From positions 1 to 62,439 of IMG/VR virus record IMGVR_UViG_3300036801_000157: a DNA stretch of 62,439 bases, one strand, 5' to 3'. The notes below the pieces were generated by a model. That model was not told the origin of the DNA and did no database searches. It saw nothing but the letters and a program-made list of their open reading frames with translations. Of this stretch, positions 3,712 to 46,706 are shown piece after piece; the first letter of the stretch is position 1, and each line of letters opens with the position of its first letter. A program made the translations under genes and the position numbers. Source of the stretch: a virus (taxonomy: Duplodnaviria; Caudoviricetes).

Positions 3712-4073
3712 TCGACCTGTGGGCGGATCATGCCAACGTGCGCGCCGTCAACGTGATGATGCTGCTTGCCAAGATGCGGCTTGAAGCTGGGAGATCGCCG
3801 GCGCCCTGGTATCGGGCCGCCGGGCAACACCTCGCGCGCCTGCGCCGCGGGCGGGGCAAGAGCAAATGGGCACAACTTGTGCGCGACGAATGCGGGATCG
3901 GCACCAGTCGCGCTTTCGAACTGATCGCGCTCGGGCGAGGCAAGGCTCTCGCGGAGGCCCGCGCGGAGAATTCCGGTAGAGTTAAAAAGTCACGCAGCTG
4001 CAAAGCGTTACCTGGTCCAAGGGGCCCCAGGAAGACGGCAAATCGCCGCTCTGGCACAGATTCCAAGCATTGA
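3708..4073 (+). CDS. DUF3102-like helical protein
   Basis: AAGQHLARL...KWAQLVRDECGIGTSRAFELIAL pattern. Confidence 0.55.
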   Translation: MIDLWADHANVRAVNVMMLLAKMRLEAGRSPAPWYRAAGQHLARLRRGRGKSKWAQLVRDECGIGTSRAFELIALGRGKALAEARAENSGRVKKSRSCKALPGPRGPRKTANRRSGTDSKH

Positions 4074-4111
4074 TTATATTGACGTTTTCCTGTCGCGGAC
4101 GGGGCTCGAAG

Positions 4112-4621
4112 GTGGCCAACGACGAGGTCCAGCTCGCTTTGATCGCCGAGGCCGCGCCGCTCCGGGTGGCCGCCAAGCCATTCGTCGTCTTCGAGATTGC
4201 CGGCGAGCCGAAGGCCTGGGGCCGGCCGGGCGCAACCATTCGTTGGGCTAGTGGTCGACCGTTCATCCACTGGTATGTATCGGCGCCAGAGGCCGCCTAC
4301 AGGACCGCAGTAGCTTGGTGCGCCAAGAGTGCCATGAAGGGCCGAAAGCCCACCAGCGAGCCCGTGGCGCTGCTGGCGCATGCCTTCGTTGGCATTCCTC
4401 CAAGCTGGCATTGGCTCACCAAGCAAAAAGCGCGTTCTGGCGCGCTGTTGCCGACCGGAAAACCAGACCACGACAATTTTCTGAAACTTCTCTGCGATGC
4501 CTTGCGCGGAATTGTTTGGCTCGATGATGCCGCCGTCGTCGATGGCCGATGCATTAAACGATTCAGCGATCGACCAGCACTTAGATGCGAGGTCAGAGAA
4601 TTCACTTCGTCGCTAAAATGA
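4112..4621 (+). CDS. rusA: RusA family Holliday junction resolvase
   Basis: GEPKAWGRP, KPDHDNFLKLLCDAL, VWLDDAAVV motifs; probable GTG start. Confidence 0.9.
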   Translation: MANDEVQLALIAEAAPLRVAAKPFVVFEIAGEPKAWGRPGATIRWASGRPFIHWYVSAPEAAYRTAVAWCAKSAMKGRKPTSEPVALLAHAFVGIPPSWHWLTKQKARSGALLPTGKPDHDNFLKLLCDALRGIVWLDDAAVVDGRCIKRFSDRPALRCEVREFTSSLK

Positions 4622-4653
4622 AAACGGGCCGCGTTTGGATCGCGACCCGCTTC
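4621..4653 (-). terminator. Hairpin terminator closing array 1 (possibly bidirectional with rusA)
   Basis: GCGGGTCGCG-loop-CGCGGCCCGT followed by TTTT on the minus strand. Confidence 0.6.
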
Positions 4654-4660
4654 ATTCATT

Positions 4661-5806
4661 ACTGCCTTGCGTTGCCCAGCCTTTCCGGACCGGACCACGC
4701 CAAGCCTCACCCGATCACATCTCGCCACAACCGGACAGACCGCGCCTGCCGAACCAAGCCTAGCCACGCCATGTCGCATCCCGCCCCACTACGCCATGTC
4801 GCACCCCGCCACGCCTGCCAAGCCTGATCAAGCCTGTTCGAATCGAGTCGAGACATGCCATATCCCCGCCGCGCCTGCCTTCCATGCCAAATTTAACGCT
4901 GCCGAACGGACCTCGCCATATCGCGCCTGCCTTCCATGCCGCGCCCAATTCGACCCAACCACACCGGAACCTGTCGCACCCGACCATGTTTAGCCGAGCC
5001 GCGCCTGCCTGACCCAGCCTCTGCTCGCCGAACCCGGTCTAGGCTAGTGTTGCCACGCCTGCCATACCGACCGGAACTTATCTTGTCGCGCCCAGCCAAT
5101 CCCCGTCCCGTCTCGCCATGCCTGCCACGCCATGCCTTGCCTCACCCGACCGCACCGGGCCGTACCCTGTCCCACCGAACCATGCCGCACCGAACCATGC
5201 CGCGCCTTGCCGGACCCAACCGCGCCTGCCTCGCCACGCCCCGCCTGACCGTATTCAGCCCAGACGAACCTTACCCGACCCGACCACGCGCGCCGCGCCT
5301 GCCTCGCCCTACCTTGCCTCGTTACACCCAACCTTGCCAAACCCAATCCCACCTCGCCATTCCTGCCACGCTTGCCGGGCCTATCCTCGACCGACCTAGC
5401 CTTGTATCGCCAAGCTATATCAAGCCCCGCCTGCCAGACCTCGCCATGCCACGCCGGACCTTGTCTTACCTAGTTCCACCCCACCTCGCCTCGCCACGAT
5501 GCGACGCGCCATACCGCTCCTGCCATGCATGTCCATGCCTCGCCTCACGGCGCCCAGCCGGACCTCACCTCATCGGGACTTGCCCCGCCTGCCTTCCTTG
5601 CCTTGCCATGCCTTATTGCACCCGGCCCAGACACGCCCCATCTCGACTTACCGATCCTGCCATGCCCAGCCCAGCCTCACCTTTCCAGACCATGCCGTGC
5701 CACGCCCCACCTTGACTATCCGTGCAAGACCAAGCCCCGCCTGCCATAGATCACCGCGCCCGCGATTGCGCCGAGCGTTGCGCTGCCAATCCGCACCGTG
5801 CCTGCC
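4661..5806 (-). ncRNA. Array 1: about 15-16 GGCAGG-delimited units of GGY-NN pentamers (putative gapped guide RNAs)
   Basis: On + strand CCTGCC delimiters end at 4750, 4819, 4879, 4931, 5009, 5063, 5126, 5230, 5303, 5367, 5435, 5524, 5593, 5661, 5745, 5806; between them a 5-nt NN-RCC period; ORFs across it are low-complexity shadows. Confidence 0.9.
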
Positions 5807-5860
5807 GAGCTTTTTCCGCTTCATAGATGCGGTGGCCCACGCGAGGAGCGCCTCGCGCCG
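5796..5860 (-). promoter_or_regulatory. Conserved structured leader of array 1
   Basis: 51/65 ungapped identity by hand to 7682-7746; CCGC-loop-GCGG hairpin. Confidence 0.75.
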
Positions 5861-5866
5861 CGGAAT

Positions 5867-6352
5867 TTATGCAGCGAGTCGTTGCTCCAAATCGATCAGT
5901 TCTTGAAGCATCCGCTGCAATAAACCAGACAAACCTGGATGTCTCGAATCGAGCATATGCGTAACATCACGCGCGCGTTCGATCGAACTCTTACAACGCA
6001 TAACTTCAGCCAGCACAATGCGTTCAGCCGCGCTGCGATTGATTGATGTGGCTGTGATCGGAACATGGCCGGCTTCGTTGTCGCGACGATCCGGATTTGA
6101 GACGTAATACGGCGAAACTATTCGCATCGATTCGTGAACGACTGTAACTGTTATGAATCGAATTAGTTCACCAGCCCGATCGAGCCGTTGCTTGTGCGCC
6201 GCCTTTCGGTCATCCCAAATAAATTCTGAATGCAATACATGCCGCGCTGGACGAGCAGCGCGGACGATGTCCTCTCGCTTCAGCACGCCGCCGTTCGCCT
6301 CGCGGATTTGCTCCAGCGCGTCGCGGATTTGATCATCTCTGCGCGATGCCAT
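5867..6352 (-). CDS. Accessory protein of the RAMP/array system (161 aa)
   Basis: Overlaps the RAMP stop codon (TAATG); GVL..EDIVRAAR...LHSEFIWDD.KAA...RL..A.ELIR motif; lies between RAMP gene and array 1. Confidence 0.8.
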   Translation of the reverse strand: MASRRDDQIRDALEQIREANGGVLKREDIVRAARPARHVLHSEFIWDDRKAAHKQRLDRAGELIRFITVTVVHESMRIVSPYYVSNPDRRDNEAGHVPITATSINRSAAERIVLAEVMRCKSSIERARDVTHMLDSRHPGLSGLLQRMLQELIDLEQRLAA

Positions 6353-7242
6353 TATTCAATCCCCACATATTCTGCCTCGCCCTTGCCATCAAGCTTTTCA
6401 AGAATCACTGGGCCTTTCGGCATCGGCCGACGCTTGCCTTTGCGGTCCACCAGTTCATGATCCTCGGCATCGATAAGCTGGCCAAGCATCTCGCGCCGCG
6501 CGACTTCTTCGGAAAACCAAGTCAGTAGTTCTTCGGTGTTTTCATCGAAAAATCCAGGTGATTTGAACGCCTTGTCCTGCGCCGTGCGCGCTTGGGTCTT
6601 GACGATGCGCTTGAAATCAGCATTATTGGATTCGACGACATCGTAAGCGCCGAATGGTCCGCCTTTCTGGCCACGCCAATCGCCGATGCCGACGATCTTG
6701 CCGGCGGCGCCAAAGAGATTCACGACGGTTCGCTCTGTCAGGATGCCTCGGATGTAGCGAAAGGTGATCGTGCCGCACCACTCCGGAAAGATCGGCCGTG
6801 TGCGAACGTCCGGCGTGCGATTCTGGTCAGAATTGCGCACCATTGCGCAATAAATTTCTGGCGTGCCATATAGGTTTACCTGCAATTCTACGATCTTGGT
6901 GAGCCGCTCGATTTTGGCTTTTGCCGTTCCTGGAATGTCGAGCGCGACCGCCGACAATGCGCCGTGAAATGCGCCGGACGGAACGTGAATGAGCGTCTTC
7001 TCTTTCAGATCGCGGTTGACATAAAGCGCGCCTCTGAACTCAGCAGGCGGATCGTGCTTGAGGCTCTGTTCCAGCCCAGCCCGGTTCTGCCTGATGCTTG
7101 GGAACAGCAATTCCCGCCAAGCCTTTGCGGCAAATCTATTCATGATCATCGGAGACGTGCCGAGGAAGTTCATCGTCACTTCGTCGATCTTGATCTCCTG
7201 GATTTCGAGCTGCGCCTCTTCTTTTTTCCTCTTCGGTGCCAT
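6352..7242 (-). CDS. RAMP/Cas7-like RNA-binding protein (putative Vipr-type effector)
   Basis: N-terminal LGTSPMI strand; IHVPSGAFHGAL (cf. RAMP IP.SS.KGAL); Gly-rich loop GIGDWRGQKGGPFG; flanked by arrays; no cas genes in the window. Confidence 0.8.
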   Translation of the reverse strand: MAPKRKKEEAQLEIQEIKIDEVTMNFLGTSPMIMNRFAAKAWRELLFPSIRQNRAGLEQSLKHDPPAEFRGALYVNRDLKEKTLIHVPSGAFHGALSAVALDIPGTAKAKIERLTKIVELQVNLYGTPEIYCAMVRNSDQNRTPDVRTRPIFPEWCGTITFRYIRGILTERTVVNLFGAAGKIVGIGDWRGQKGGPFGAYDVVESNNADFKRIVKTQARTAQDKAFKSPGFFDENTEELLTWFSEEVARREMLGQLIDAEDHELVDRKGKRRPMPKGPVILEKLDGKGEAEYVGIE

Positions 7243-7282
7243 TTGGTGTTGTCCTTGCTAGACATCGGCCGATTTAGCCGCG

Positions 7283-7318
7283 CGGCCACTATTGCCAAAT
7301 AATCCAGCGTTTGACAAG
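7283..7318 (-). promoter_or_regulatory. Putative sigma70-type promoter for the RAMP operon
   Basis: CTTGTCAA-N14-GGCAA-TAGT-GGCCG, same layout as 15625, 28531 and 40921. Confidence 0.6.
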
Positions 7319-7322
7319 CCAC

Positions 7323-7370
7323 AAAAAAAAAGGCCCGCAGCCGGCGCAAGGATAAACCGGCTACGAGCCC
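7323..7370 (-). terminator. Rho-independent terminator downstream of array 2
   Basis: GGGCTCGTAGCCGG...CCGGCTGCGGGCC stem followed by T9. Confidence 0.85.
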
Positions 7371-7426
7371 TGTGGGCCAAATCCGCGACGGGATCGTGCG
7401 GCTTGGCGGCACCTAAAGTGTTAATA

Positions 7427-7690
7427 CCTTCCAGGTCGGCCTGACCGCGCCTGTCCTAGCCTCACGCGCCCCGCCGCACCGAGACTTACCCAGCGTGCCT
7501 CGCCTGCCAAGCCATGCCGAACCGGACTGTACCCAGCAACACCTGACCACAACATATCACGCCGTGACGAACCCCGCCTGCCTCGCCGCGCCGAACCGAT
7601 CTGTACCTTGTCCTGACGTGCCCAGACGTGCCCGGACATACCAAGCCTGCCCTACAATTCCGAGCAAATGGACGTGCCGCGCCGTGCCTA
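7427..7690 (-). ncRNA. Array 2: 3 full GGY-NN units plus leader-proximal part
   Basis: Delimiters end at 7432 (CCTTCC), 7508, 7582, 7651; 5-nt period; leader 7682-7746. Confidence 0.85.
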
Positions 7691-7755
7691 CCGACCGTTT
7701 ACCGCTTCATAGCTGCGGGCGGCCGCGCGAGAAACGTCCCGCGCCACAGCGTGTG

Positions 7756-8340
7756 TCATACGCCGGAATTTCTTGAATCGTCAAGCAGCGCATTGACGCG
7801 CTCTGACGCTTGCACAGTATCGTCGAACTGTTCAACCCCCCATTTGCCAGCGCCGATCAGTTTCACAACATAACTGCCGTGCGTAATTTCGATATCTTTT
7901 TCTGGCAGCACCAACCAAACACGATCGTGAATTCTAATATGAACCAACAAAATTTCATCGGCAGATCGCACATGCAAGCCACGCAACGACATCGCCTTTA
8001 ATTGTTGATAATATGGCGCATCTTTCCACACATCAGGATAATCAGGATCAACCGTGCACGTCACACATTGGACTCCATTGAAAACACCAAGACTTAAAAT
8101 CATGTGACTCAATAATGGAAACCATTCATGGCCGACTTTCGGGCTCATCAGCCAGCCACATGCATAGGTGCGACATATCTGCGGACGCGCTTCGTAAATT
8201 CCGCAGCCACCGCAGCCAGGCCGACAGTGCTCGCACCAAACGCCTGCCGGCTTGGATAATTCGGCAACAAATAATAATCGGCAGCATTCGGAACACTTGC
8301 CGCAGGATCGTCCTGGCGCGATTGGCGGGCCACCGTGCAT
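7756..8340 (-). CDS. Cys-cluster protein (YkgJ/CxxCxxCC-like)
   Basis: RSCGKCSECC, WCEHC, CGIYEARPQICRTYAC; start set at TGATG overlap. Confidence 0.75.
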   Translation of the reverse strand: MHGGPPIAPGRSCGKCSECCRLLFVAELSKPAGVWCEHCRPGCGGCGIYEARPQICRTYACGWLMSPKVGHEWFPLLSHMILSLGVFNGVQCVTCTVDPDYPDVWKDAPYYQQLKAMSLRGLHVRSADEILLVHIRIHDRVWLVLPEKDIEITHGSYVVKLIGAGKWGVEQFDDTVQASERVNALLDDSRNSGV

Positions 8341-9716
8341 CACGTTGTCCATATTCCAAACCCGACCGGCGCGGGATAAATAAACGGCGTGCCGGATACG
8401 GTGCCGCCGAAATTGCCGACCATCTGATCGTTGATCGCGCCGCTGGCGCCGCCGAAGCAGACCGCAGGCGCCATCGGCGACGACGCCTGGATGACCACAC
8501 CGCCGATGCCAGTGTTCGGATTCTCGGAACCGAGAACAAGCCCGTTCCAATTGCCGCCGTTCTTACGCAGCCACGCTTTGCGCGCGCCGAGATCGATCGC
8601 AAAGCTGATCACATCGCCAGATGTGCACGCGCCGAGCGTCTTGCCGCTATTAGCGCTGTTGGAAAATATATTTCCTGTCGACCTGTAGAGCGCCGTGCAT
8701 TGAATGCCGCCGACCATATTGTTGAAAGAGCCGGTCGACGAAAGTAGTCCTGGACAATCGGATGCGCCATGCGTCACGGCCATCGTGACTTCGAAATAAT
8801 ACTTGCCTGCCGTTTTCTGCGTTGTGCTGATAGCACCGCCATTGGCGACTGTGCTGGTGCGGGTCACCGATAATTTGCTGGCCGACAGCGAGACCGCAGC
8901 CGCCGTGCCGTCGAATGATGCTGGCTGACCACTGACGACGACTGGTATGTAAAATGCTTCCTGGTCGAACATGACATCGATATCGATTATTTGATTGCCG
9001 CCGAACAACGACAGAAGATAGATGGCGTCAGTGTCTGTTGCTAAGCCGGCGAACAATGTCGCGATAACATCGCTTCGTGCAGCATAGATCGCGTCGCTAT
9101 CAGTCACCAACGAGACGCCGAGCACTGTCGCGCTCGTGCGCGCTGGTGGATAAAACACATCCAGATCATTGACGAAAGGCGCAAACAGGAAATTTCGAAA
9201 CACGATCGGCGCGAACACCGAGTCCGATTCCGTGTGCCGGCCTGGCAGCACAGTCAATGGCGTGCTCAATTCCGGCGCAAACACCATTTCGAAATCTCCG
9301 AACAGGCTTGGTCGCACCGATCCAGGGAGCCCGACGACCGCCGAGAATATCGCGTCATCACTATTATATATGTTTGGCCATACGCTGCCAGGTGCCACCA
9401 CTGGCGCGATGGAAGGCAACGACAGAACGTCACCGTCGAAATAGATCATCGGCGTGACGACCTGATCGCCTTTCAGGATTGGCGCAAACACGAAATCGTC
9501 GGTGATCAGGAATCCAATATTCATAGCTTGTGGAATTATGGCGGCAAAAATAGAATCTAATTCGGATACAAATGGCGACGACAACAATTGAGTGACGGCA
9601 TAATCGAACGCAATGAACGGACCCATAATACCGTCGGCGTCATCGTAATAACGCGTTGGACCAATCACACCGCGAGGCGTGAGCGTTCCGATCTGCGCAA
9701 TGATGCCTGAGATCAT
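8340..9716 (-). CDS. Virion protein with D.D..Y.P repeats and C-terminal SPRY/ConA-like domain
   Basis: GKYYFEV, GDVISFAIDL...KAWLRKNG, NFG...F.YPAP.GF. Confidence 0.7.
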   Translation of the reverse strand: MISGIIAQIGTLTPRGVIGPTRYYDDADGIMGPFIAFDYAVTQLLSSPFVSELDSIFAAIIPQAMNIGFLITDDFVFAPILKGDQVVTPMIYFDGDVLSLPSIAPVVAPGSVWPNIYNSDDAIFSAVVGLPGSVRPSLFGDFEMVFAPELSTPLTVLPGRHTESDSVFAPIVFRNFLFAPFVNDLDVFYPPARTSATVLGVSLVTDSDAIYAARSDVIATLFAGLATDTDAIYLLSLFGGNQIIDIDVMFDQEAFYIPVVVSGQPASFDGTAAAVSLSASKLSVTRTSTVANGGAISTTQKTAGKYYFEVTMAVTHGASDCPGLLSSTGSFNNMVGGIQCTALYRSTGNIFSNSANSGKTLGACTSGDVISFAIDLGARKAWLRKNGGNWNGLVLGSENPNTGIGGVVIQASSPMAPAVCFGGASGAINDQMVGNFGGTVSGTPFIYPAPVGFGIWTT

Positions 9717-15155: not shown

Positions 15156-15611
15156 CTAGCCTACTGCTTCGCCAGTCTCTTCAAGCGTTAGGCTCCATTT
15201 GACCCTGCGGCCGTATTCGTTGATGCTCTGCTGCACGCCAGTCACCATCATCATGAGACGCGGCCGGTAGATCGTGAATGCGCCGACGACGCGCTCTGAG
15301 CCATCAACGACAGGCCGTGATGGCGCGCCACCCACTGTCCGATATACCAGCTCGGCCACACAATCTACAGTGACCTTCATGCCTTGGAACACACCATCGA
15401 ACGCAGGGGCCTCGACATCGCTGCAGGTGATGACGGATTCGTACTTCTTGAATTTATCAACCGCCAGATCGACCAGAAGACCATTCACAGTTCGCCGAGG
15501 TGCCGCCACAGCTTTAATCGGATCGAGCGTCTGATCTAAATTTCTCGCAGAATATAATGGTACGCCATTGGATAAAAGCACCAATAGTGTCTGTTCAGCT
15601 GGGAGACTCAT
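15156..15611 (-). CDS. Putative distal tail protein
   Basis: RRTVNG.L, W.LTLEE motifs; downstream of tape measure; start re-assigned to 15611. Confidence 0.65.
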   Translation of the reverse strand: MSLPAEQTLLVLLSNGVPLYSARNLDQTLDPIKAVAAPRRTVNGLLVDLAVDKFKKYESVITCSDVEAPAFDGVFQGMKVTVDCVAELVYRTVGGAPSRPVVDGSERVVGAFTIYRPRLMMMVTGVQQSINEYGRRVKWSLTLEETGEAVG

Positions 15612-15624
15612 TAATTTTTCCTCT

Positions 15625-15660
15625 CTTGCATTTTCTTCAGAATTATGGCCATATCGGCCG
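15625..15660 (+). promoter_or_regulatory. Putative promoter of array 3
   Basis: CTTGCATT-N14-GGCCA-TATC-GGCCG. Confidence 0.6.
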
Positions 15661-15715
15661 CTTGCTTTCTCGCAATCGGTCCATCGGGCGCTGCGCTTGC
15701 GACACGCTCGATCGA

Positions 15716-15815
15716 CTAGGCATGGCATGGCGAGGCAGGCGTGGTTGGTCTCGGCAGCGTCCGTCTGGGTGCGGTGTACCTAGGCAGAGCGGAGCACGGC
15801 TAGGCTTGGCAGGCA
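15716..15815 (+). ncRNA. Array 3: single-unit GGY-NN mini-array
   Basis: GGCAGG at 15734 and 15808 bracketing 14 pentamers; intergenic, antisense to the tail operon. Confidence 0.8.
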
Positions 15816-15819
15816 AGTA

Positions 15820-15858
15820 AGCCAGGGCCGCAGTGATGCGCCCCTGGCTCTCTTTATT
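15820..15858 (+). terminator. Terminator after array 3
   Basis: AGCCAGGG...CCCTGGCT stem plus CTCTTTATT. Confidence 0.65.
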
Positions 15859-16039
15859 CATTCCGGCGCAATGACTCGGCCTCTTCGAGCTGGCGCAACC
15901 GAGCCAATGCCTCCTCACGCGTTGGGATGTCAGCCAGCACCGGCCGCAGATCGATCAGCCGGCCGCGTTCAAAAATTTTCCAGCTCCTGGTCTTCGTAAC
16001 AAGATCGGTGACCTCGACAGTCTGATACCGGCGTGGCAT
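15854..16039 (-). CDS. Small hypothetical protein
   Basis: GAGGA RBS; follows tape measure. Confidence 0.55.
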   Translation of the reverse strand: MPRRYQTVEVTDLVTKTRSWKIFERGRLIDLRPVLADIPTREEALARLRQLEEAESLRRNE

Positions 16040-16050
16040 TTGTGTTCCTC

Positions 16051-19000
16051 TTATTTATTCCAGCGGGGCCTGAGTCCAGTGCTCGAAGCTTGCCTCGCGA
16101 TCGCCGCGCGTTCGAGCGCTTTAGCCGTATCCTCCGGCGCAGTCAGGCCCCTGAACGTCTGATCCCCGATCGTAAGATTGATCGTGCGCGTGCTCTGTTG
16201 CGTGCTGTTCGAACCGACTACGATACCGCCGCCGGCAAACCCGGGCAACGTAATCCGAGGCATGAACGATATCTGATTGAATCCGCCATTGCGAAACCCA
16301 TCCAACGGCATTCTCAGATTATTTAAAAGATCGAACAGACCGACGCCGTACTTCTGCACCGCAGCCGCTTTCATCACGAATTCGCCGTTTGACAGCCACG
16401 ATAGTATACTGTCCGACGTTCCGCTGCCGGCACCACTGACAAAGCCGCCCGATGCATGGCTGCCAGCGCTCGACGCAGCTGCTGCCGCCGAGCTGGCCGC
16501 TGCTGCCGCCGAGCGAGCCGCGTCGTTCGCCGAGCTTGCCGCCGCTGCCGCCGAGCTGGCCGCATCGCTAGCCGAATTCGCCGCATCGCTGGCGGCCGTC
16601 GCCGCATCGGTGGCAGCCTGCTGCGCCGTCTGCAATCCTGCCTGGGCGTTGCTCACCGCCTCCGTGATCTGCTCCCCAGCGCTCGTTACCTGACTCAATA
16701 AATCTGTGAATATCGATGAAACCTGCTGTGCCGTGCTCTGCGCCGCGAAGATGATGGCGCTGAAGTCGGGCGGCTGCGGCGGCGGGATGATGATGTTGCT
16801 GAACGCCTGCGCAACCTGCTGCGCCGCCTGCCGGGCGGCGTTGATAATGGCGTTGAAGTCGGGCGAGCCGGAAAACTCCGGATGAATGTTCTGGAACACG
16901 GCTTCGATCTCGTTCGCCGCACTTCGCGCCGCGTCAATGATGTTGTCGAAATTCAGCTTGCCGGAAAACTCAGGCTTGATTTTCTGAAATATCGCCTCGA
17001 CCTCGTTGGCCGCGCTGCGTGCCGCGTCAATGACGCCACTGAAGTCCAGGCCACCCTTGAATTCTGGCTTGATGTCGTTGAAGACGGCCTCGACCTCGTT
17101 GGCCGCGCTTCTGGCCGCATCGATCACACTAGCGAAGTCCAGCCCGCCCCTGAACTCTGGTTTGATGTCGTTGAAAACAGCTTCGATCTCGTTGGCCGCG
17201 CTTCTGGCCGCATCGATCACACTAGCGAAGTCCAGCCCGCCCTTGAACTCAGGCTTGATGTTGTTGAAAACGGCTTCGATCTCGTTCGCCGCGCTTCTCG
17301 CCGCGTCGACGATGCTGTCGAAATTAAGCGACCCAGAGAACTCCGGCTTGATGTTCTGAAATACGGCTTCGATCTCGTTGGCCGCCTTCTCGGCCGCCTG
17401 CACGAGATTCGAAAATTCACCGGCGCCGCTTGGGTCGACATCTGGCTTGATCTTCAATGCGTCATTGATCCCTTTTCCTATCTTCTCGGCCTCAGTCACA
17501 AGCTGCTGGCCGGATTGATTGAGCTCTGCCGCGCCGGCGCTCATGTCGAAAAGCTTGCCGAAGAAGCCCTTGATCCCCTGTAGCGCGTTCTTGATCTTCT
17601 CTAAGAAACTGGTGGTGTCAGGTGGCTCAAGCTTGGGCGCCGGAATAGTTTCCTTGCCAAGAGCTTGTAATTTCTGTTTGTAGGCTGCGATTGCCTTGTC
17701 GGTTTCGGTTGTATCAAATCCAGCCGCCTTCAATTGGATTCGTATGTTCTGCAAGTCTTCGATCTTTCTCCTGATCTCCTCGGCTGTTTCCTTCGCGTCG
17801 CCTTCGAGCGAAACCTTTGGTGAAGCCGTTATATTGTTTAAGGCTTCGATCTCTCTCCCGAGCTCGTCGGCTTCTTGCTTCGCCTCTTTCCCGCCTTCGA
17901 GCGAAACCTTTGGTGAAACCGTTATATTGTTTAACTGCTTGATTTTCTCGGCATATTCATTGAAAGAAATTATTCCAGCTTGCCACATATATCTCAAACG
18001 ATCAGCAGTATTGCCTTCAGGATGCGACGCGTAAAATTCCTTAATTTTTGAGGCATATTGATCAAAAGAAATTATGCCGTCCTGCCACATCTTGAAGATA
18101 TCACCAGAACTGGCAGGCTTGATCTGGTTCAATTCCTGAAGCTTACTCTTGTATTGATCTACGCCAATTATGCCGTCCTGCCACATTTGCCTGAGTCCAG
18201 CCGCCGTGGCCTGCAACGCGCTGGTATCAGGCGACGGAAGCTTGATCGGGATTTGCAGCTTTTGATTGGCATCGTTGAATTTCTGAAGTACCGCATCGAT
18301 TGCCTTGTTGGCTTCCGTCGGGTCGCCGCCGATCTTTATTATATTGTCTCGCTTGCTTATGAGATTGATCAGCTCGTCGCCCAGCGCGCTGATTTGCCGC
18401 CTGGCCTCCTCAACGCCTTTAGCGCCGAGCGTGATTTCGGCCTTCTGGGCGGTGATCCTTTCCAGTTGGCCTTGTAAATCGGCAAGCTCTTTTTTGGCGT
18501 CAGTCGTATCTGCGCCGATCTTTACTTTCGCATCTATCTTGGTCGTAACTTCGGCTATCTTGCTTTTGATTTCGCTGGCTCTTTGATCGAGAGCCGCGAG
18601 GTCGGCGTCGACTTTAATTTGAAGATGCGTCTTGTTGACTTCGTCGGCAAACGCCTTCAGATCGGCCTTGATTTGCTCGAATGGCTTTTGCTTGGCAAGA
18701 CCGCTCAATATGATCCCAAACGCGCGGACCTGTTCTGTCGCAGTCAAGGAGGAAAGACCAGTCTCCTTGACAGCAGCGGCCGCAGCCTGAATATTCTTTA
18801 CATCTTCAACTGGGATTTTGAACGCTTGGCTGATCAAAGCTGGATCAACACCTTGTAATGCGCCCACTAAATCTGTAATAGCCTTTTGAACATTGCCGCC
18901 ACTTTTCACTATCTCGTCAAGCGCCACACGCGCAGCCGCGATCTTGCTGGTGCCTTCCGTCATTGAATCGAATGTGATGCCTTTGATGCCGTTGACGACA

Positions 19001-20709
19001 TCCTCCATCTTTTTGACAAGCGTCGACATGTCATTCGCTACAGCGGTCGCCGCCGCAGATGATTTTCCAGCGAGATCGTCAAAGGCTTGCTTTGCAGGCG
19101 TTGTCGCCTCAGCAAGCTGGCGTATGACATCCTGAAGCTTCTGGTAATTTTCGACGGATTGTTTCGGGCCGCCCAGTTGCTCCGCCTTCTGTTCGGCCTC
19201 CAGCCAATTCTTGGTCGCCTCCAAGGCGGCGATGTGCGATTTGGCGACTTGATCGCCCATCGCAGCTACTTTTGCGCTATTGGCTTCGAGATTGCCCAAC
19301 GCCGCAACGTAGCCTGCAGCGCTCCCGCCTGCAGCGATGAAAGCATCCTGCTGCTTGCGAAGGGCATCCGTCGTTTGCCCGGTAGCGTCAGCGAGGCTTT
19401 TCAGGGCGATTTCATTCTCGCGGATTTTGTCGATCCATCCCGAGATCGCCGAGACGACACCAGTTATGACAGGTATTAAAAGGCTGATGCCTGCGCTGAA
19501 CCCGGCGAGCGCAAGGCTGAGCGGCGCGAACGCCGCGGCTACCCCATTGGCCGCAGTTGCGATCGCGCCGATCTTCCCAGGAATTCCACCGGCGACACCG
19601 GCGAGATTGTTGAGGCCCGAAAGAGCGGTCGTCGCGCCCGTCGCAAAAGTCGATAACGCCGGCCCGACCTGCTGCAGGCTCGTCGCCACTTGCGTGAAGC
19701 CTTGCTGCGTCGCCGTAGCCGATTGCGTCACGGTCGTCAGGGCGCCTGATACGGTCTTGCCCGCGTCCGCCACCGTCGTCATCGCGCTGGCGACCGTCGT
19801 TCCGGTTTCGCCGAACTTACCGACCGTGCCAGCAGCGGTCGTGAGTTTGTCGGTCAGACCGCTGATCGCCGTCGCAGCGCCGCCGGTGACATCGGCGACC
19901 TTGCCGATGGCGCCGGACGCGTTCCCGACAGCATCACCGACCTTACTGACCCCATCAGCAGCTTTTTGACCTACGTCAACGACTTTCCCAAGTCCATCAG
20001 CGGCCTTGCTGCCGGCATCGCTGGCTTTGCCTAGTCCATCCGCGGCCTTGCCAGTCCCATCGGCGATCTTCCCGACGCCCTCGCCGGCTTTCGCCCCGGC
20101 ATCGGCGATCTTGCCGAGTCCATCCGCGGCCTTGCCGCCCGCCTCCCCGATCTTGCCGAGAGCTTCTGTCGCCTTGTTTCCGCCATCGGCGATCTTGCCA
20201 AGATTGTCGGACGCCTTGCCAGCCGCCTCGCCGGCCTTGTCTAATCCACTCGATGCCTTATCGGTCCCTTCCCCAATCTTCGAAACGCTGTCGCCAACCT
20301 TGCCGGCAGCATCGCCTATCTTCCCAATGCCTTCGCCAGCCTTAGAGGCCGACTCGCCTATCTTTGAAATACCGTCACTGGCCTTCGAGACAGAATCACC
20401 GACCTTTGAAATGTCGTCGCCGGCCTTCGAGGCCGCATCGCCAATCTTCGTAATGCCTTCCCCAGCCCCGCCGAGCGTCGAGAGCTTTTCGCCGATCCCG
20501 GAGGCCGCCTCGCCGATCTTGCCGATCTGTTCGGCCGCCTGCGCTGCCGCCTCGCCGGCCTTCTCAAGACCAGTGCCGCCGCCCTCGCCAGCCTTTTCAA
20601 TCTGCTGCGACGCCTCGTCCGCGGCATCGCCGACAGCCTTGAACTGCTGGGCAGCCTCGTCGGCGCCAGTTGTTGTTATAGTGATTTTCTGAACGACATC
20701 ATCGGCCAT
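16051..20709 (-). CDS. Tail tape measure protein
   Basis: 1552 aa Ala/Gly-rich; C-terminal HASGGFVSG.G.GTSDSI..WLSNGEFV motif; position. Confidence 0.9.
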   Translation of the reverse strand: MADDVVQKITITTTGADEAAQQFKAVGDAADEASQQIEKAGEGGGTGLEKAGEAAAQAAEQIGKIGEAASGIGEKLSTLGGAGEGITKIGDAASKAGDDISKVGDSVSKASDGISKIGESASKAGEGIGKIGDAAGKVGDSVSKIGEGTDKASSGLDKAGEAAGKASDNLGKIADGGNKATEALGKIGEAGGKAADGLGKIADAGAKAGEGVGKIADGTGKAADGLGKASDAGSKAADGLGKVVDVGQKAADGVSKVGDAVGNASGAIGKVADVTGGAATAISGLTDKLTTAAGTVGKFGETGTTVASAMTTVADAGKTVSGALTTVTQSATATQQGFTQVATSLQQVGPALSTFATGATTALSGLNNLAGVAGGIPGKIGAIATAANGVAAAFAPLSLALAGFSAGISLLIPVITGVVSAISGWIDKIRENEIALKSLADATGQTTDALRKQQDAFIAAGGSAAGYVAALGNLEANSAKVAAMGDQVAKSHIAALEATKNWLEAEQKAEQLGGPKQSVENYQKLQDVIRQLAEATTPAKQAFDDLAGKSSAAATAVANDMSTLVKKMEDVVNGIKGITFDSMTEGTSKIAAARVALDEIVKSGGNVQKAITDLVGALQGVDPALISQAFKIPVEDVKNIQAAAAAVKETGLSSLTATEQVRAFGIILSGLAKQKPFEQIKADLKAFADEVNKTHLQIKVDADLAALDQRASEIKSKIAEVTTKIDAKVKIGADTTDAKKELADLQGQLERITAQKAEITLGAKGVEEARRQISALGDELINLISKRDNIIKIGGDPTEANKAIDAVLQKFNDANQKLQIPIKLPSPDTSALQATAAGLRQMWQDGIIGVDQYKSKLQELNQIKPASSGDIFKMWQDGIISFDQYASKIKEFYASHPEGNTADRLRYMWQAGIISFNEYAEKIKQLNNITVSPKVSLEGGKEAKQEADELGREIEALNNITASPKVSLEGDAKETAEEIRRKIEDLQNIRIQLKAAGFDTTETDKAIAAYKQKLQALGKETIPAPKLEPPDTTSFLEKIKNALQGIKGFFGKLFDMSAGAAELNQSGQQLVTEAEKIGKGINDALKIKPDVDPSGAGEFSNLVQAAEKAANEIEAVFQNIKPEFSGSLNFDSIVDAARSAANEIEAVFNNIKPEFKGGLDFASVIDAARSAANEIEAVFNDIKPEFRGGLDFASVIDAARSAANEVEAVFNDIKPEFKGGLDFSGVIDAARSAANEVEAIFQKIKPEFSGKLNFDNIIDAARSAANEIEAVFQNIHPEFSGSPDFNAIINAARQAAQQVAQAFSNIIIPPPQPPDFSAIIFAAQSTAQQVSSIFTDLLSQVTSAGEQITEAVSNAQAGLQTAQQAATDAATAASDAANSASDAASSAAAAASSANDAARSAAAAASSAAAAASSAGSHASGGFVSGAGSGTSDSILSWLSNGEFVMKAAAVQKYGVGLFDLLNNLRMPLDGFRNGGFNQISFMPRITLPGFAGGGIVVGSNSTQQSTRTINLTIGDQTFRGLTAPEDTAKALERAAIARQASSTGLRPRWNK
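16860..17420 (-). repeat. 93-bp (31-aa) tandem coding repeats in tape measure
   Basis: AARSAANEIEAVF.DIKPEF.G.LDF repeated about 6 times. Confidence 0.85.
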
Positions 20710-21918: not shown

Positions 21919-22737
21919 TCAAGTTGTGATGGTGCCGGTCTCAGGGCTGACGACTGGCGTTGATGCACCGATCGAATTGGTGCCTGTGACCGTAACCGTC
22001 GCCGTCTTGGTGGCATCGCCGGTGACGACAGTATATGTCTTAGTGTTGACTGGAGTCCCTCCAGGCGTGGTGCCGCCAACTTTCCATAAATAACCATAAC
22101 TCGCAACGCCGATCCAGCCGCCGGTGTTGGCCGTGAGCACGTCGCCGACTTTCGGCGCGCCAGCCGTGCCGGTGCCGCCAGTGACGAAAGGCGGCATCAC
22201 GTTCTCAGGAATGACCGTGCTGACCGGCGGCTTCAGCGTCATGGTGCCGAACACGCCGCCGACCGCCTGCACCGTCCCAGTCACAGGCAATTTGGCGAAC
22301 GTGGTCCCGATCGGCGAGAAGTCGCCGGACGGATTGAATTTCACCGAAAGCAGATCGACATACCAGCGCGGACCCACCTCGTTGGTCGCGTAATATTTCA
22401 ACTCGCCGCTCAGCGAATCGCGCGAGAAAATATTGACGGTCGGATTGCCGTCCACATCCAACGTCACATCGCCAAGCACCAACATCGCAAGGTTCTGCGC
22501 AGTCAACTCCTCCATGTCCATCTTCACCTCGCCAGACTTCTCCAGCGTGATGGACAAATCCTTCAACTGCGTACCCTCCATCGCCGAAAAGTGGTCGAGG
22601 GTCGTAATCTTGGGAGTGAATGTAAAAGTCGGCACATTGCCGACGTGATAGAAGTCGAGCGCGTCTTCGGGTTTGAACAGGATAAAGCCCTTCCCAACGG
22701 CCAAGTTTTTTACATCAGGTGAGAGGATTCCGGCCAT
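21919..22737 (-). CDS. Major tail tube protein with C-terminal Ig-like domain
   Basis: VGKG...HVGNVP.F.F, PKVGDVLTA..G.W.G..SY.Y.W; GGAGG RBS. Confidence 0.85.
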   Translation of the reverse strand: MAGILSPDVKNLAVGKGFILFKPEDALDFYHVGNVPTFTFTPKITTLDHFSAMEGTQLKDLSITLEKSGEVKMDMEELTAQNLAMLVLGDVTLDVDGNPTVNIFSRDSLSGELKYYATNEVGPRWYVDLLSVKFNPSGDFSPIGTTFAKLPVTGTVQAVGGVFGTMTLKPPVSTVIPENVMPPFVTGGTGTAGAPKVGDVLTANTGGWIGVASYGYLWKVGGTTPGGTPVNTKTYTVVTGDATKTATVTVTGTNSIGASTPVVSPETGTITT

Positions 22738-29246: not shown

Positions 29247-30590
29247 TCACGCAGGCTCCGCTTCCTCGCATTGCAGTTCGGACTGCCGCCGCTTCAGCTC
29301 GGCTTCTAGTTCGGCGTATCGAGCTTCAAGCAGAGCAGTGTTGATCGGCGCATCTGTAAAGTCGCTCGGCATCAAGGCGCGGCCGATCCGAGCTTCAAGA
29401 CATTCAAAGCAGAGAAAGTCGCCATAGCTGGTGTTGTATGGCAGTATTTCGCGATCAGGCATGCCTGCCGAAAACCAAAGACTGTCATGCACGTGATAAT
29501 TTTCGCACCTCACGCCACAGTCGATGCAGAGGAAACTCATGCCCCTGCGCGGCGTCTGGTACGGACCGATCCGCTTCTTGTCCCTGTATTTGGCCTGACG
29601 CAACCGAGCGCATTCGCCACAAGTCCGGTATTCATATTTGCCGTCGCGACCAATCCGGAGATTGCCGCCGATCAACTCGTGCCCATGCTTGCAGTGCGTC
29701 GAAACGGTCCTTGGCGCACGTGCCGGCTTTTCTTTCTTCGCCCTGTGCTTGCGCATACGAAGCTTGATGCACTCTTTGCATCGACGCTTTTCATATTTAC
29801 CTTCGTGAGCAATGATCAGATTGTCGCCGCTCAATTCGTGGCCATGGCTGCATCTTGGCCCAAGCTTCCACCGTGATTTACCCTTCCAAGCATCAAGACA
29901 TTCCATGATCTTGGCTCGCCGCCGTGCACCCATCAGCGGCAACAGCGTCATCATCAGCCCGGAGACCTGAGCTTGCTTCATGAGCTTCCAGTGATAAGCC
30001 GTTTTGCCAGACGGCAGGAGACGCTGCTGCGGAAGCCTACCAAGATCAAGCATCGTGCCGAAACGATCGATGACATCCTTGTCCGTCATCGCGATCTCAA
30101 TGATCGGCTCACCATCGCGGCGGTGACCAAAGTAACCCTCCCCTTCAAGTAGACCAGCTATCCACCCTAGATCAAATGTCGGAGCATGCCTCCACTCGAT
30201 CTCAGGAAAAGTCGTTACGCGATCTTCAATTACAGCCAATCGCATTCTTCGCGGTCTCTCGGTCTTCCAAGAAAACCTTCGTTTCGTCTTCCAACGTTCA
30301 AGGCATTCGACGATCTTTGCCCGCCGTCGTTCTCCCATCAATGGCAGTAGCGTCATCATTAGACCAGCAGTGGTTGCTTGATTTGTGGAAGACCACCGGA
30401 ATTCGGTCTTGCCAGATGGCAATAGCCTCTGTCCTACTCCACCAAATCCAAGGATTGATTGCAGACGGCAGATGACATCGCCATCGGTCATGGGAATCGA
30501 TATCACCAGATCACCGCAGTCCCGATCGGTGAAAGAACCTTCGCCCTCAAGCAATCCCGCTACCCAACCCAATTGACCCATTGAGATCAT
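29247..30590 (-). CDS. Two-motif LAGLIDADG-like endonuclease with Zn-finger tail
   Basis: GWVAGLLEGEGSF and GWIAGLLEGEGYF; two C..GHEL.G.NL...R.C..C modules; terminal C..C/LC..CLE.R.GR.L. Confidence 0.75.
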   Translation of the reverse strand: MISMGQLGWVAGLLEGEGSFTDRDCGDLVISIPMTDGDVICRLQSILGFGGVGQRLLPSGKTEFRWSSTNQATTAGLMMTLLPLMGERRRAKIVECLERWKTKRRFSWKTERPRRMRLAVIEDRVTTFPEIEWRHAPTFDLGWIAGLLEGEGYFGHRRDGEPIIEIAMTDKDVIDRFGTMLDLGRLPQQRLLPSGKTAYHWKLMKQAQVSGLMMTLLPLMGARRRAKIMECLDAWKGKSRWKLGPRCSHGHELSGDNLIIAHEGKYEKRRCKECIKLRMRKHRAKKEKPARAPRTVSTHCKHGHELIGGNLRIGRDGKYEYRTCGECARLRQAKYRDKKRIGPYQTPRRGMSFLCIDCGVRCENYHVHDSLWFSAGMPDREILPYNTSYGDFLCFECLEARIGRALMPSDFTDAPINTALLEARYAELEAELKRRQSELQCEEAEPA

Positions 30591-31938: not shown

Positions 31939-32889
31939 TTAGATACCATCGGCATAATGTACGCTGAGCGGCCTTCTGACCTCGATACCGCCGGTACGGA
32001 AAATCCCGGGTACATCGTACCGGAGAGGCGTGACTTGCATGACGCCGAGGAACTTGTGCGGCATCGGGAGATGCAGCTTGAGGATCGACGGATCGTTTCG
32101 ATACGCGACCATGCGGGCCGCGCCCGCAGCACCTGCCGTCTCCAGCCCGCGGACCGCGCGGATGGTGAGCTGCTGGCCGGTGATGGCGGTGTATGTGTTG
32201 TACTGCTGCAGCCACGCCATCGCGCTCGCCGTGGTGTTGGCAATTCGCGTGGTCGCCAACAATGTAAAGCTGGCAACCGGCAGCAGCAGCGTGTCGGCCA
32301 TTTCAACTGTTTGCGATCCGGTGTAGATGCCCGTCAGAACCGCGTTGACATCCCGGATCATCAGATCGGCAGTCTTGGTGGACCACAGCGTTGACGATCC
32401 GCTGCCATCGGCGGCCACGCTGCCGGCGGGCACGTTGGCGTCGTTTACGATGCCGGTCCAGTTTTTGGTCGAGTCGCCGGTGAATGTGATGCGCTCCATG
32501 AACTCTTCGTAAGCTCGGCGCGCCGCATCGCCTCGCTCGGCGGTCAGATTCATGTTCGGAATCTGCATCGCCACACCAAGTTCCTCCATCGTGTAGTAGT
32601 ACCCGATGCCCGCCATCTCGATTCCTTGCTCGTACTTTGTGCGCACGATATCGGCAAATGGCATATCGGAGGCCATGTGGTGGAACCACTGGGCCTGACC
32701 GACTTTATCCGACGAGAAGAATGTTTTCGATTTCGTCCACTCGTTGCCCGAAGTATCGACAGGCACAAGGTCCGGGTATTGGATTTCAGGATACTGAATT
32801 TCGTAGATTTGCGGCTCTATATAAGAAGCCTGCTGCACCATGAAGCTCAATATCGACTGAGCGTCACGAAACGATTCGCGATAGTTCAT
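31939..32889 (-). CDS. Major capsid protein (DUF2184 type)
   Basis: YEIQYPEIQY..LVP, GY.Y..EEL, ADTLLLP, RMVAY, GG.E.RRP....Y.DGI. Confidence 0.9.
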   Translation of the reverse strand: MNYRESFRDAQSILSFMVQQASYIEPQIYEIQYPEIQYPDLVPVDTSGNEWTKSKTFFSSDKVGQAQWFHHMASDMPFADIVRTKYEQGIEMAGIGYYYTMEELGVAMQIPNMNLTAERGDAARRAYEEFMERITFTGDSTKNWTGIVNDANVPAGSVAADGSGSSTLWSTKTADLMIRDVNAVLTGIYTGSQTVEMADTLLLPVASFTLLATTRIANTTASAMAWLQQYNTYTAITGQQLTIRAVRGLETAGAAGAARMVAYRNDPSILKLHLPMPHKFLGVMQVTPLRYDVPGIFRTGGIEVRRPLSVHYADGI

Positions 32890-40919: not shown

Positions 40920-40920
40920 C

Positions 40921-40955
40921 CTTGCATTAATCTGACAAATAGGCCACTTTGGCCG
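40921..40955 (+). promoter_or_regulatory. Putative promoter of array 4
   Basis: CTTGCATT-N13-GGCCA-CTTT-GGCCG. Confidence 0.6.
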
Positions 40956-41016
40956 TGCGGCGTCGAGCGTTCTCGGCGCGGTCGCCCGGTAGCGTTAAAC
41001 CGGGAATTGATCGAGG

Positions 41017-41366
41017 GGCACGGTTCGGACAGGCGAGAACGAGGCGCGGCCAGACAGCGCTCGATAATCTTTGGCAGGAGCGGCTAGACCGGACGGGGCG
41101 AGGCTGGGCATGGCGCGTTCGGGCAAAGCGCAGCGTGGCAAGGCAGGCGTGGTTGGGTTGGACATGGTGCGGCATGGACTGGCGGGGTCAGGCGGGGCTT
41201 GGCCTGGCAGGCCAGGCACGTCGGGCGCAGCGAGTCTAGTGCAGGCAAGGCACGGCGCGGCGAGGCATGTCGCGGCAGGGATTGGCATGGCAGGCGCGGT
41301 CCGGTGCGGCTGAGCAGGACGTGGCTGGGCGCGGTGCGGATTTGCCCGGCAACGCAAGGCCGGCAG
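41017..41366 (+). ncRNA. Array 4: 4 full GGY-NN units plus leader-proximal part
   Basis: GGCAGG at 41073, 41142, 41206, 41289, final GGCAG 41362; leader 40956-41024 resembles leaders of arrays 1 and 2. Confidence 0.85.
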
Positions 41367-41373
41367 AATGTTT

Positions 41374-41407
41374 GGTGGCGGTCGTCCTTCGGGGCGGCCG
41401 TCATTTT
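41374..41407 (+). terminator. cUUCGg hairpin terminator after array 4
   Basis: GGCGGTCGTCC-TTCG-GGGCGGCCGTC then ATTTT. Confidence 0.75.
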
Positions 41408-45795: not shown

Positions 45796-46191
45796 TCATT
45801 GCAATTTCTTCCTGAAATAATTCACTGCGTCCCCGATCATGCGCGGCGTTGTCACGATTTCGGTGGCGTCATCCATGACGGCAAGCGCACATTCCTGGCA
45901 CAGCTTGCGTCCAGCCGGAGCATGCGGACGAAACTGCACCCGATGTCCGCAATCGCTGCATTTCCCCGTCGCATTGTCCGGCAGCAGCAATGGCGTAGTG
46001 ATCCGAGCGCAAACAACCACCAATTCGTCATCGTCAATCATTTTTGGCGTTTCGATCCAATGCTGATATGTCTCGCCGAGACATCGGCCCTTCCATGGAC
46101 AACGATCGCAGTCGCAACCCTTGCGAAACTGCCATTCGCATCCTGGCAATGGCCGTCTCGATGGCCGCATTGGAATCTTTGCATTGCTCAT
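45796..46191 (-). CDS. Cys-rich Zn-finger hypothetical protein
   Basis: CDRC, CSDCG, LCQEC. Confidence 0.55.
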   Translation of the reverse strand: MSNAKIPMRPSRRPLPGCEWQFRKGCDCDRCPWKGRCLGETYQHWIETPKMIDDDELVVVCARITTPLLLPDNATGKCSDCGHRVQFRPHAPAGRKLCQECALAVMDDATEIVTTPRMIGDAVNYFRKKLQ

Positions 46192-46706
46192 TTCTTGGCG
46201 TCTCGTTTCGCCAGCGCCGTCGCATAATCGCGGCCGAGCATGTCCGTGCCGCGCACGAAATCCTCGGGAAACAAGCCGCGATGGCAATGCGGACAAGCCG
46301 GGATCATGTTGCGATGGCGCCAAGCCTGATCGATCGCCTTGGCCGCCAGCGAGCGCACACTGAAACTCTCGGCTTCCTTCAACGCGATCTCGCGCTCATC
46401 CAAACGATGCAGCGCGCCGCTGTATTGACTCACGAGCTGCTCGAAAGCGTCGAACGCCTCGACATTCCTTTGGCAGTCCTTGCACCAGATGCGGCGCTTG
46501 ACATTATCGTACACGAGCGACCGGTGCAGGCACGAACCATGGTGCCGCCGCGTCCAGCCACGCGCAACCCGGAGATCGCCGATGTCGACCACGGTCACGC
46601 CACCGATAAAAGCCTGCTCCTCGATCGCAGGATCGCGCTCGCGCAGCGGACAGCCCGGCACTTGGCACGGCGCCGTGACCTCGGTGTGGCAATCAGGGCA
46701 TAACAT
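46188..46706 (-). CDS. Zn-ribbon hypothetical protein
   Basis: C.H....YD...RRIWCKDC, CPHC.RG. Confidence 0.65.
   Translation of the reverse strand: MLCPDCHTEVTAPCQVPGCPLRERDPAIEEQAFIGGVTVVDIGDLRVARGWTRRHHGSCLHRSLVYDNVKRRIWCKDCQRNVEAFDAFEQLVSQYSGALHRLDEREIALKEAESFSVRSLAAKAIDQAWRHRNMIPACPHCHRGLFPEDFVRGTDMLGRDYATALAKRDAKK

Follow-up and report, generated by a model that had tools for sequence, protein, structure and literature searches.

VIPR (Viral Interference Programmable Repeat) systems mediate RNA-guided silencing and were described in bioRxiv preprints in 2026 (PMC13142463; 10.64898/2026.04.26.720927; 10.64898/2026.10.15.759431). According to the available text of these preprints, the guide RNAs (vrRNAs) contain 9–16 YNNGG repeats that are bound by the Vipr protein, and their NN pairs read double-stranded DNA. 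Vipr protomers grip each GGY and expose two N bases for pairing with the target DNA, one target base being skipped per repeat (every third base, usually the wobble base). The targets sit in competing mobile elements, and silencing was abolished when the NN pairing was disturbed (PMC13142463). The present analysis concerns a VIPR system in a virus genome of 62,439 nucleotides (nt) and 58% G+C (IMG/VR record IMGVR_UViG_3300036801_000157; the window, which is the entire record) and the codons that the phage carries where its own guides match it. A near-perfect fit to genes of related phages (portal, tail gene and rusA) is seen for at least four of the guides. Self-avoidance by recoded resident alleles is the best-supported reading of these matches and is probably correct.

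The locus shares its main features with the VIPR systems of SUSP1 and a Pseudomonas fulva prophage, namely a small RAMP protein with a glycine-loop motif, an adjacent accessory gene and GGYNN tandem-repeat guides upstream and downstream of the genes. As in published VIPR, the one-base skip falls on the wobble position, targets are found on either strand and in competing phages, including the vap gene of the VIPR locus, and extra solo guide blocks are present. The differences begin with Vipr itself, which has 296 residues compared with 202 in the SUSP1 chain, with only ~50 residues aligning by sequence. The guide units are 52–104 nt long and appear to abut via a short conserved core, GGCAGGCGCGG, in place of the invariable structured 3′ tail of published vrRNAs, which is a long pseudoknot in the SUSP1 clade. 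The targets are structural and recombination genes carried by close relatives rather than satellites or lysis-lysogeny regulators, and the solo blocks, unlike those of published VIPR, lie inside the structural operon and adjoin the resident copy of the target. Solo vrRNAs that target vrRNAs have lower self-match than rival-phage scores (10.64898/2026.10.15.759431, available text), and the portal, tail and rusA guides of the window likewise match self below rivals. The self sites here are protein-coding with six-fold-degenerate mismatches, whereas the vrRNA-targeting vrRNAs aim at noncoding vrRNA loci.

Comparable arrangements exist outside VIPR. In the intron-less homing endonucleases and marker exclusion of T-even phages, a weapon against a relative's allele adjoins a resident allele that is resistant by a few, partly silent substitutions, and the weapon and the resistant allele are inherited together. 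The weapon of the present phage differs in being an RNA-guided silencing filament and not a nuclease, and it implies neither cleavage nor gene conversion. In CRISPR, a mismatch between guide and resident sequence prevents self-targeting, and phages escape by point mutation of the protospacer or the protospacer adjacent motif. VIPR has no reported motif of this kind, and wobble changes are of no help against it; only Arg, Leu and Ser codons therefore leave room for silent escape.

VIPR genes

Judged from its sequence, the phage carries a VIPR system, with ~26 guide units alongside a Vipr RAMP protein and a vap-like gene. A profile built from 34 Vipr homologues matches one solved structure, PDB 36pp_D ('SUSP1 Vipr protein'; E = 9e-8), and the alignment spans RPIF..W and the glycine loop aG..GiGDWR. 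Published Vipr is a minimal RAMP with an RNA recognition motif core, a glycine-rich loop and a thumb, and the AlphaFold model of the window's Vipr (predicted local distance difference test score of 81.2) likewise points to a RAMP fold. A Foldseek search with the model yielded 37 PDB matches at E ≤ 0.001; those listed are without exception CRISPR RAMP subunits (Cmr, Csm, Cas7, type VII or gRAMP). The Vipr family comprises at least 696 unnamed proteins at E ≤ 1e-5; the 296-residue protein has no Pfam domain. The vap-like protein matches phrog_15946, with no Pfam or PDB sequence match. Homologues of vipr and of the vap-like gene are found in 19/118 and 13/118, respectively, of otherwise unrelated viral loci (L026–L143), which were fetched from viral contigs by the array motif alone. 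Close relatives of Vipr were not found in viral contigs, the nearest being two loci at 41%.

Guide blocks

Four noncoding blocks (B1–B4) are conspicuous for skewed C/G composition and marked 5-nt periodicity, with a C autocorrelation at lag 5 of 0.28–0.42 (0.42 in B1). Given the identification of Vipr, they are predicted to be vrRNA arrays that are read from the G-rich strand. The blocks hold 26 units, each of which ends in GGCAGGCGCGG on the G-rich strand; this short conserved core is the only apparent closing element of each repeat tract. GGYNN runs of 6–21 units lie on the vipr strand. B1 and B2 flank the vipr and vap-like genes on the same strand as these genes, and the solo blocks B3 and B4 run antisense to the structural operon. 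A sequence of ~25 nt (ccgcttcatag.tgcgg..gcc) recurs at the right end of both B1 and B2. Before the Vipr match, the C-rich blocks had been considered as Rho-utilisation sites, Chi-like clusters, iterons or centromeres, two-tetrad G-quadruplexes and a coding open reading frame (ORF; 4936–5715), all of which were abandoned after it.

The four blocks are insertions relative to the two related genomes used for comparison (G001, 12 kb; G002, 82.5 kb), and G002 contains no such period-5 block. In G002, rusA and the gene for a Cys-rich protein (Cys gene) are convergent neighbours ~110 nt apart. In the window, a VIPR cassette of ~3.1 kb (array, vap, vipr, array; 4622–7755) lies between them and thus behaves as an inserted moron. 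B4 (window 40920–41406 against L001 1054–1528) replaces, with sharp borders, a ~160-residue ORF of G001, which there sits in translational coupling between the genes for fibre and portal and has no sequence similarity to B4. The divergence from G001 in the adjoining end of the portal gene (40605–40919) changes in a step that looks like a mosaic boundary at B4. At the position of B3, the homologous gap in G002 is only ~100 nt long. A 61-residue ORF (15854–16039) lies between the tape-measure gene and B3 and may have arrived together with this block. A fifth C-rich, G-poor stretch (47081–47230; C 45%, G 13%), flanked by two small minus-strand ORFs, lacks both a GGCAGG core and a called GGYNN run; it could be a guide block in decay or a feature of another kind.

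Contiguous BLAST of the blocks against the window, G001 and G002 stayed at chance level (top score of 34.2 bits versus 32.2 in controls), and B1 had no meaningful match among 50,697 phage records. A first-pass guide search found no tandem or CRISPR-like array in the genome, which also has no Rfam family at gathering score and no tRNA. For three of the sites and for their orthologues in the relatives, ungapped, k-mer and wobble-masked matches did not rise above codon-shuffled nulls. These first-pass tests read the genome contiguously or 3-periodically and were thus blind to a 5-to-3 code. With no CRISPR-like array, no Rfam match and no contiguous match of the sites within the genome, the system was not assigned to CRISPR-Cas.

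GGYNN arrays with a CGCCTGCC-type core are widespread in environmental viral contigs of 50–70% G+C. At least 25 of the 118 motif-fetched loci have comparable period-5 blocks, with a score that is never reached in G002. Examples are L077 (6030–6860 and 7984–8440), L080 (9684–11260), L138 and L122, and some environmental arrays extend to ~1.6 kb and more than 25 units. A literature search on pentanucleotide periodicity found nothing relevant.

Decoded guides and their targets

The guides were decoded by the published one-base-skip NNx rule. In total, 165 twelve-unit frames with at least 75% GGY conformity were scanned on both strands against the array-masked window, G001 and G002, in each case against the whole sequence and not only the neighbours of the blocks. 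Matches of at least 21/24 numbered 5 in G001 and 11 in G002, with none in the window and none with 20 guide shuffles. Their detection depends on the skip: a skip of 1 gave the 16 matches, and skips of 0, 2 and 3 gave 0, 0 and 0. At lower thresholds, the window itself is matched more often than expected, with 7 self matches of at least 19/24 versus 0.85 expected and 2 of at least 20/24 versus 0.1. A self match at 46312 (19/24; guide at 5246) was left out of the site tally because 0.85 such matches are expected by chance.

The matches form five groups, each on a gene that adjoins its guide block. The gaps between guide and site are 59 nt for rusA, 360 nt for vap, 281 nt for the Cys gene, 174 nt for the tail gene and 321 nt for the portal gene, and five of the five pairs thus lie within 59–360 nt of each other in a 62-kb genome. 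The guides read the coding strand at the portal and rusA sites and the antisense strand at the tail, Cys and vap sites. At all five sites, the skipped base is codon position 3. An earlier note on the region 7927–7965, made from the sequence alone, had posited a wobble-blind guide, and the Vipr protein, the exclusive yield of skip 1 and the register of the skip with the wobble base bear this out.

The portal, tail and rusA guides match relatives better than the resident genome. The portal guide matches G001 at 26/26 positions and G002 at 24/26 but self at only 19/26 (20/24 with a shorter frame). The tail guide reaches 22/24 in G002 versus 17/24 in self (19/28 over a longer frame). The 3′ end of rusA is matched at 23/24 in G002 in the 12-unit scan and at 26/28 over 14 units by hand count, versus 16/24 and 16/28, respectively, in self. 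The vap guide matches self at 23/32, with no relative available for comparison. The Cys guide matches self at 22/28 (21/26 and 20/24 with shorter frames) and G002 at 20/28; a second Cys-directed guide (start 7583; G002 20/24) was left out of the counts. Wider searches for targets added little. The guides gave one match at 20/24 and none of at least 21 among the 118 motif-fetched loci. Close relatives of the Cys gene numbered 0 in viral contigs, and 7 metagenome loci of at most 53% identity did not cover the site. No portal relatives were found in genome contigs.

Codons of the resident sites

The earlier note had claimed that the resident genome uses the other codon family at guide-matching sites, and the decoded guides reproduce each codon that it listed. 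The Cys-rich ORF reads TCT GCC GAT GAA ATT TTG TTG GTT CAT ATT AGA ATT CAC at 7927–7965, and the 3′ end of rusA reads ...CTT AGA TGC GAG GTC AGA.... The tail gene contains two TTA, AGA and TCT at 15528–15569, and the portal gene contains two AGT and AGG at 40710–40748. The mismatches are given here in coding sense as self codon versus guide dinucleotide. In the portal gene, TTT, AGT, AGT and AGG stand against the guide's CAn, GCn, GCn and CGn, and the relatives have CAG/AAC, GCG/GCC, GCG and CGC at these codons. The tail mismatches are TTA, TCT, AGA, AAT and TTA versus CTn, ACn, CAn, GGn and CTn, and those of the Cys gene are CGA, ATT, TTG, ATT, AGA and CAC versus CTn, GTn, CTn, GTn, CGn and AAn. 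In rusA, AGA, TGC, AGA, ACT, TCG and TCG face CGn, GTn, CGn, GTn, CCn and CCn, with one extra mismatching codon. The vap-like gene has eight mismatching codons, including CGA (Arg) and TCA (Ser) versus AGn. Nine mismatches are synonymous with the guide dinucleotide, comprising both AGA codons of rusA, AGA and TTG of the Cys gene, both TTA codons of the tail gene, AGG of the portal gene and CGA and TCA of the vap-like gene.

Use of the other codon family at matched codons exceeds the background, a comparison that the earlier note had put forward as its check. Among the guide-encodable Arg, Leu and Ser codons of the self sites, the other family is used in 9/14, where genome codon usage would predict 4.96 (Poisson-binomial P = 0.016). 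Family switches between the phage and its relatives are frequent in both directions, affecting 65/398 conserved codons versus G001 and 228/824 versus G002; against these rates, P is 7.5e-5 and 0.0046, respectively. AGR is used for 4/5 of the arginines at which the guide has CGN, versus 17.4% genome-wide, and TTR for 3/4 of the leucines at which it has CTN, versus 29.6%. AGA and TTA are indeed rare, as the note had stated, at 81/1092 Arg codons and 81/1355 Leu codons. In the tail gene, the 5 family switches among 25 codons compared with G002 all fall at 15539–15584, at or adjoining the site. In the portal gene, GCN-CGC is present in 9/10 aligned relatives and AGT-AGG in the window alone, and the resident portal state is derived. 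This alignment covers 10 of the 13 fetched relatives, since L003, L006 and L010 are near-duplicates of L002, L005 and L004, and L013 is too distant for codon comparison.

In the proposed mechanism, the guides would silence competing relatives, either in co-infection or as resident prophages, and the recoded resident copies would act as immune alleles that prevent self-silencing. Tight linkage would keep each guide together with its immune allele. Immunity would lie in differences from the guide at codon positions 1 and 2, about a third of which are silent. Arg, Leu and Ser, each with two codon families, allow silent differences at these positions, and the routes taken are CGN>AGR, CTN>TTR and AGY/AGR>TCA/CGA, the remainder being mostly conservative replacements. 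The alleles may have been recoded in place, by selection in situ, or imported with the guide by recombination.

Weighing of the interpretations

Several results count against self-avoidance by recoding. Only 9/29 mismatching self codons are synonymous with the guide dinucleotide; the other 20 are replacements, including A>S, I/V, P>S and G>N, and the term synonymous therefore fits a minority. The selection to escape a guide that the earlier note proposed thus stands only in part, being favoured by the better matches in relatives, the derived portal state and the excess of other-family codons, with the action of selection in situ being what we infer. The enrichment test draws on 14 codons, and the most conservative null brings P no lower than 0.016. 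The portal change from Ala to Ser via AGT (GCG>AGT) is not significant as a mark of selection: compared with G001, AGY is used in 2/2 cases in the portal target and 1/9 elsewhere (Fisher 3/55 = 0.055), and Ala>Ser via AGY is not unusual, with 3/11 where the window has Ser and 10/17 where the relative has Ser. Likewise, position 1–2 divergence of the target windows is not significant for their genes in a sliding-window comparison. Windows at least as diverged number 42/529 in the portal gene versus G001 and, versus G002, 57/147 in the tail gene, 39/171 in the Cys gene and 350/744 in the portal gene.

The Cys site at 7927–7965 is a further weak point. No other self match in the genome is as good (0.79–0.83), and it lies at or above the authors' target-calling cut-off of 0.8 (10.64898/2026.10.15.759431, available text); no better-matched relative was found, with G002 below self, and avoidance is therefore least secure there, where self-regulation may apply instead. 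The arrays are degenerate, with 5/14 units of the Cys guide, for instance, breaking GGY. The self site of the second Cys guide, ~18/26 by hand, contains no Arg, Leu or Ser codons, and its inclusion would change the synonymous share to 9/34 mismatching codons. Mismatch tolerance of vrRNAs is not discussed in the available text of the VIPR triplex paper.

The earlier note had also expected recoding to leave local AT-rich patches, an expectation that is not supported. The alternative families AGR, TTR and AGY make up 973/3470 Arg, Leu and Ser codons (28%) genome-wide. The genome contains 109 patches at no more than 15/40 G+C and 111 non-overlapping 13-codon clusters with at least three alternative-family codons, versus 89.2 ± 6.3 after synonymous shuffling, a count reached by 0/500 shuffles. 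AT-rich patches and alternative-family clusters are thus common throughout the genome and no markers of guide sites. Alternative-family codons coincide with low G+C content at the third positions (GC3) of unrelated neighbouring codons (P = 6e-4), and the Cys gene, with a GC3 of 0.49, has 18/31 switches spread over its whole length. Wobble bases in the patches are shifted toward AT as well, which a wobble-blind guide does not need; this shift could be explained by A/T-biased new mutations.

Such compositional patterns would suit the idea that the rare codons merely reflect AT-rich stretches of mosaic genes and that the resemblance to the guides is coincidental. Coincidence is nevertheless the least probable of the explanations and highly improbable: relatives are matched at 24/24, 23/24 and 22/24, whereas no match of at least 21 appeared in 20 shuffles, the matches require the one-base skip, skip and wobble are in register, and guide and site are adjacent in 5/5 pairs. 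The adjacency is open to another explanation, in which the vrRNAs would pair imperfectly with the neighbouring resident genes to lower or time their expression, the layout following a cis-regulatory logic. Every guide with a recognisable target does adjoin the resident homologue, self near-matches exceed expectation (7 versus 0.85), and no better external target than the resident gene is known for the Cys guide (0.79–0.83). This self-regulation is very unlikely, however, given that the portal, tail and rusA guides match relatives better than self, that the resident portal codons are derived away from the guide, that disturbed NN pairing abolished silencing (PMC13142463, available text) and that vrRNA-targeting vrRNAs score lower on self than on non-self (10.64898/2026.10.15.759431, available text).

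The main rival is import, in which a guide block and its adjoining allele were recombined in from an already diverged donor and only the pairs that do not target self survive. On this view, the mismatches of the resident sites would be normal divergence that came in with the guide and not the product of selection for recoding in the present lineage. That the blocks are insertions, with a cassette between genes that are adjacent in G002 and a B4 block that replaces a G001 ORF at sharp borders, is what import would produce. The first ~105 portal codons (40605–40919), next to B4, differ from G001 by 6–20 nt per 45, versus 1–8 per 45 further in. Import would likewise accommodate the unexceptional divergence of the target windows and the commonness of family switches in both directions. 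Against import, the rusA guide departs from G002 and follows the resident gene at TTn and at the AAn-TGn end, which suggests an intended target very closely related to the resident allele. The other family is also used more than independent draws from genome codon usage would give, and no donor sequence was found. Import is considered unlikely, if less so than self-regulation or coincidence, and self-avoidance by recoded resident alleles is preferred.

Self-avoidance by recoding leads to a more tentative proposal, to which somewhat less than even confidence is attached. Each guide and its recoded allele may form a linked poison-antidote pair directed against essential or useful genes of close relatives (portal, tail, rusA and vap) and spread in a drive-like manner; in a bolder variant, the guides would be generated locally from the adjacent gene. 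With linkage over 59–360 nt, recombinants would inherit both parts or die, and guide blocks would consequently spread like a drive. The position of the solo blocks beside the immune allele suggests such selfish, drive-like inheritance.

Relation to published VIPR

VIPR itself is known; what appears new, relative to the available text of the preprints, is escape through six-fold codons and the layout of a guide beside its immune allele. Wobble skipping overcomes resistance via synonymous codon swaps (PMC13142463, available text), and escape requires changes at amino-acid-determining positions (10.64898/2026.10.15.759431, available text). Six-fold codons, arginine and leucine are not mentioned in the latter text as available. 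Escape through the Arg, Leu and Ser families was not found in the available text of the four papers that mention vrRNAs, and the same holds for guides against the portal, tail and rusA genes of close relatives and for solo blocks beside an immune allele. The resident sites would thus offer a natural-sequence example of a loophole in a wobble-skipping code held to be robust to synonymous escape: six-fold-degenerate amino acids permit silent change at guide-read positions, and the phage that carries the guides makes use of them at its near-targets. A second point of interest is that core structural genes of close relatives serve here as targets of VIPR guides. The layout yields a simple rule for target prediction, which is to check the gene neighbouring a guide block. 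In programmable VIPR tools, the choice of target could avoid, or exploit, stretches rich in Arg, Leu and Ser.

Genome organization

The genome is that of a complete, siphovirus-like phage. Family searches indicate a siphovirus-like gene layout, mostly on the minus strand (Table 1).

Table 1. Positions of the VIPR components, guides, resident sites and other genes in the window
Feature	Position	Strand	Remarks
vipr	6352–7242	minus	Vipr RAMP protein, 296 aa; profile match and predicted fold
vap-like accessory gene	5867–6352	minus	161 aa; directly downstream of vipr, overlaps vipr stop
B1	4640–5830	minus	16 GGCAGG-cored units of GGYNN pentamers, 52–104 nt; downstream of vap
B2	7420–7700	minus	3 cores; upstream of vipr
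B3	15729–15850	plus	solo block, 2 cores; between tape-measure and tail genes
B4	40940–41400	plus	solo block, 5 cores; between collagen-like fibre and portal genes
rusA guide	4677–4746	minus	14 units; last unit of B1
Resident rusA site	4577–4618	plus	two AGA where guide reads CGn
vap guide	5657–5736	minus	16 units
Resident vap site	6096–6143	plus	guide reads antisense strand
Cys-gene guide	7578–7647	minus	14 units
Resident Cys-rich ORF site	7928–7969	plus	7927–7965 of the earlier note
Tail guide	15738–15797		within B3
Resident tail site	15529–15564	plus	gene 15156–15728, minus
Portal guide	41072–41136		within B4
Resident portal site	40713–40751	minus	gene 38205–40919, minus
rusA	4070–4621	plus	Pfam RusA
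Cys-rich ORF	7756–8355	minus	phrog_9155; no Pfam
Tape measure	16051–20709		family search
Major tail protein	21919–22737		family search
Major head protein	31939–32889		family search
Protease	33485–35539		family search
Portal gene	38205–40919	minus	family search
Large terminase	43245–45587		family search
Endolysin	47662–49257		family search
Helicase	59832–61493		family search
HNH endonuclease gene 1	29247–30590		family search
HNH endonuclease gene 2	46188–46751		family search
HNH endonuclease gene 3	49254–49862		family search
Two methyltransferases			family search

Several genes contain internal repeats or low-complexity regions. The portal protein is 904 residues long in total and has a long Ala/Lys/Glu-rich low-complexity C-terminal extension (38205–39300) that is little conserved in G001. 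The tape-measure gene contains six 93-nt tandem copies and a run of 42-nt repeats (16781–17431 and 19892–20572). An ORF at 613–1368, which has no family match, contains five 48-nt repeats that encode KRRGRPP-like (AT-hook-like) motifs. The first HNH gene carries an internal direct repeat, with 29870–29960 and 30275–30365 being 75% identical.

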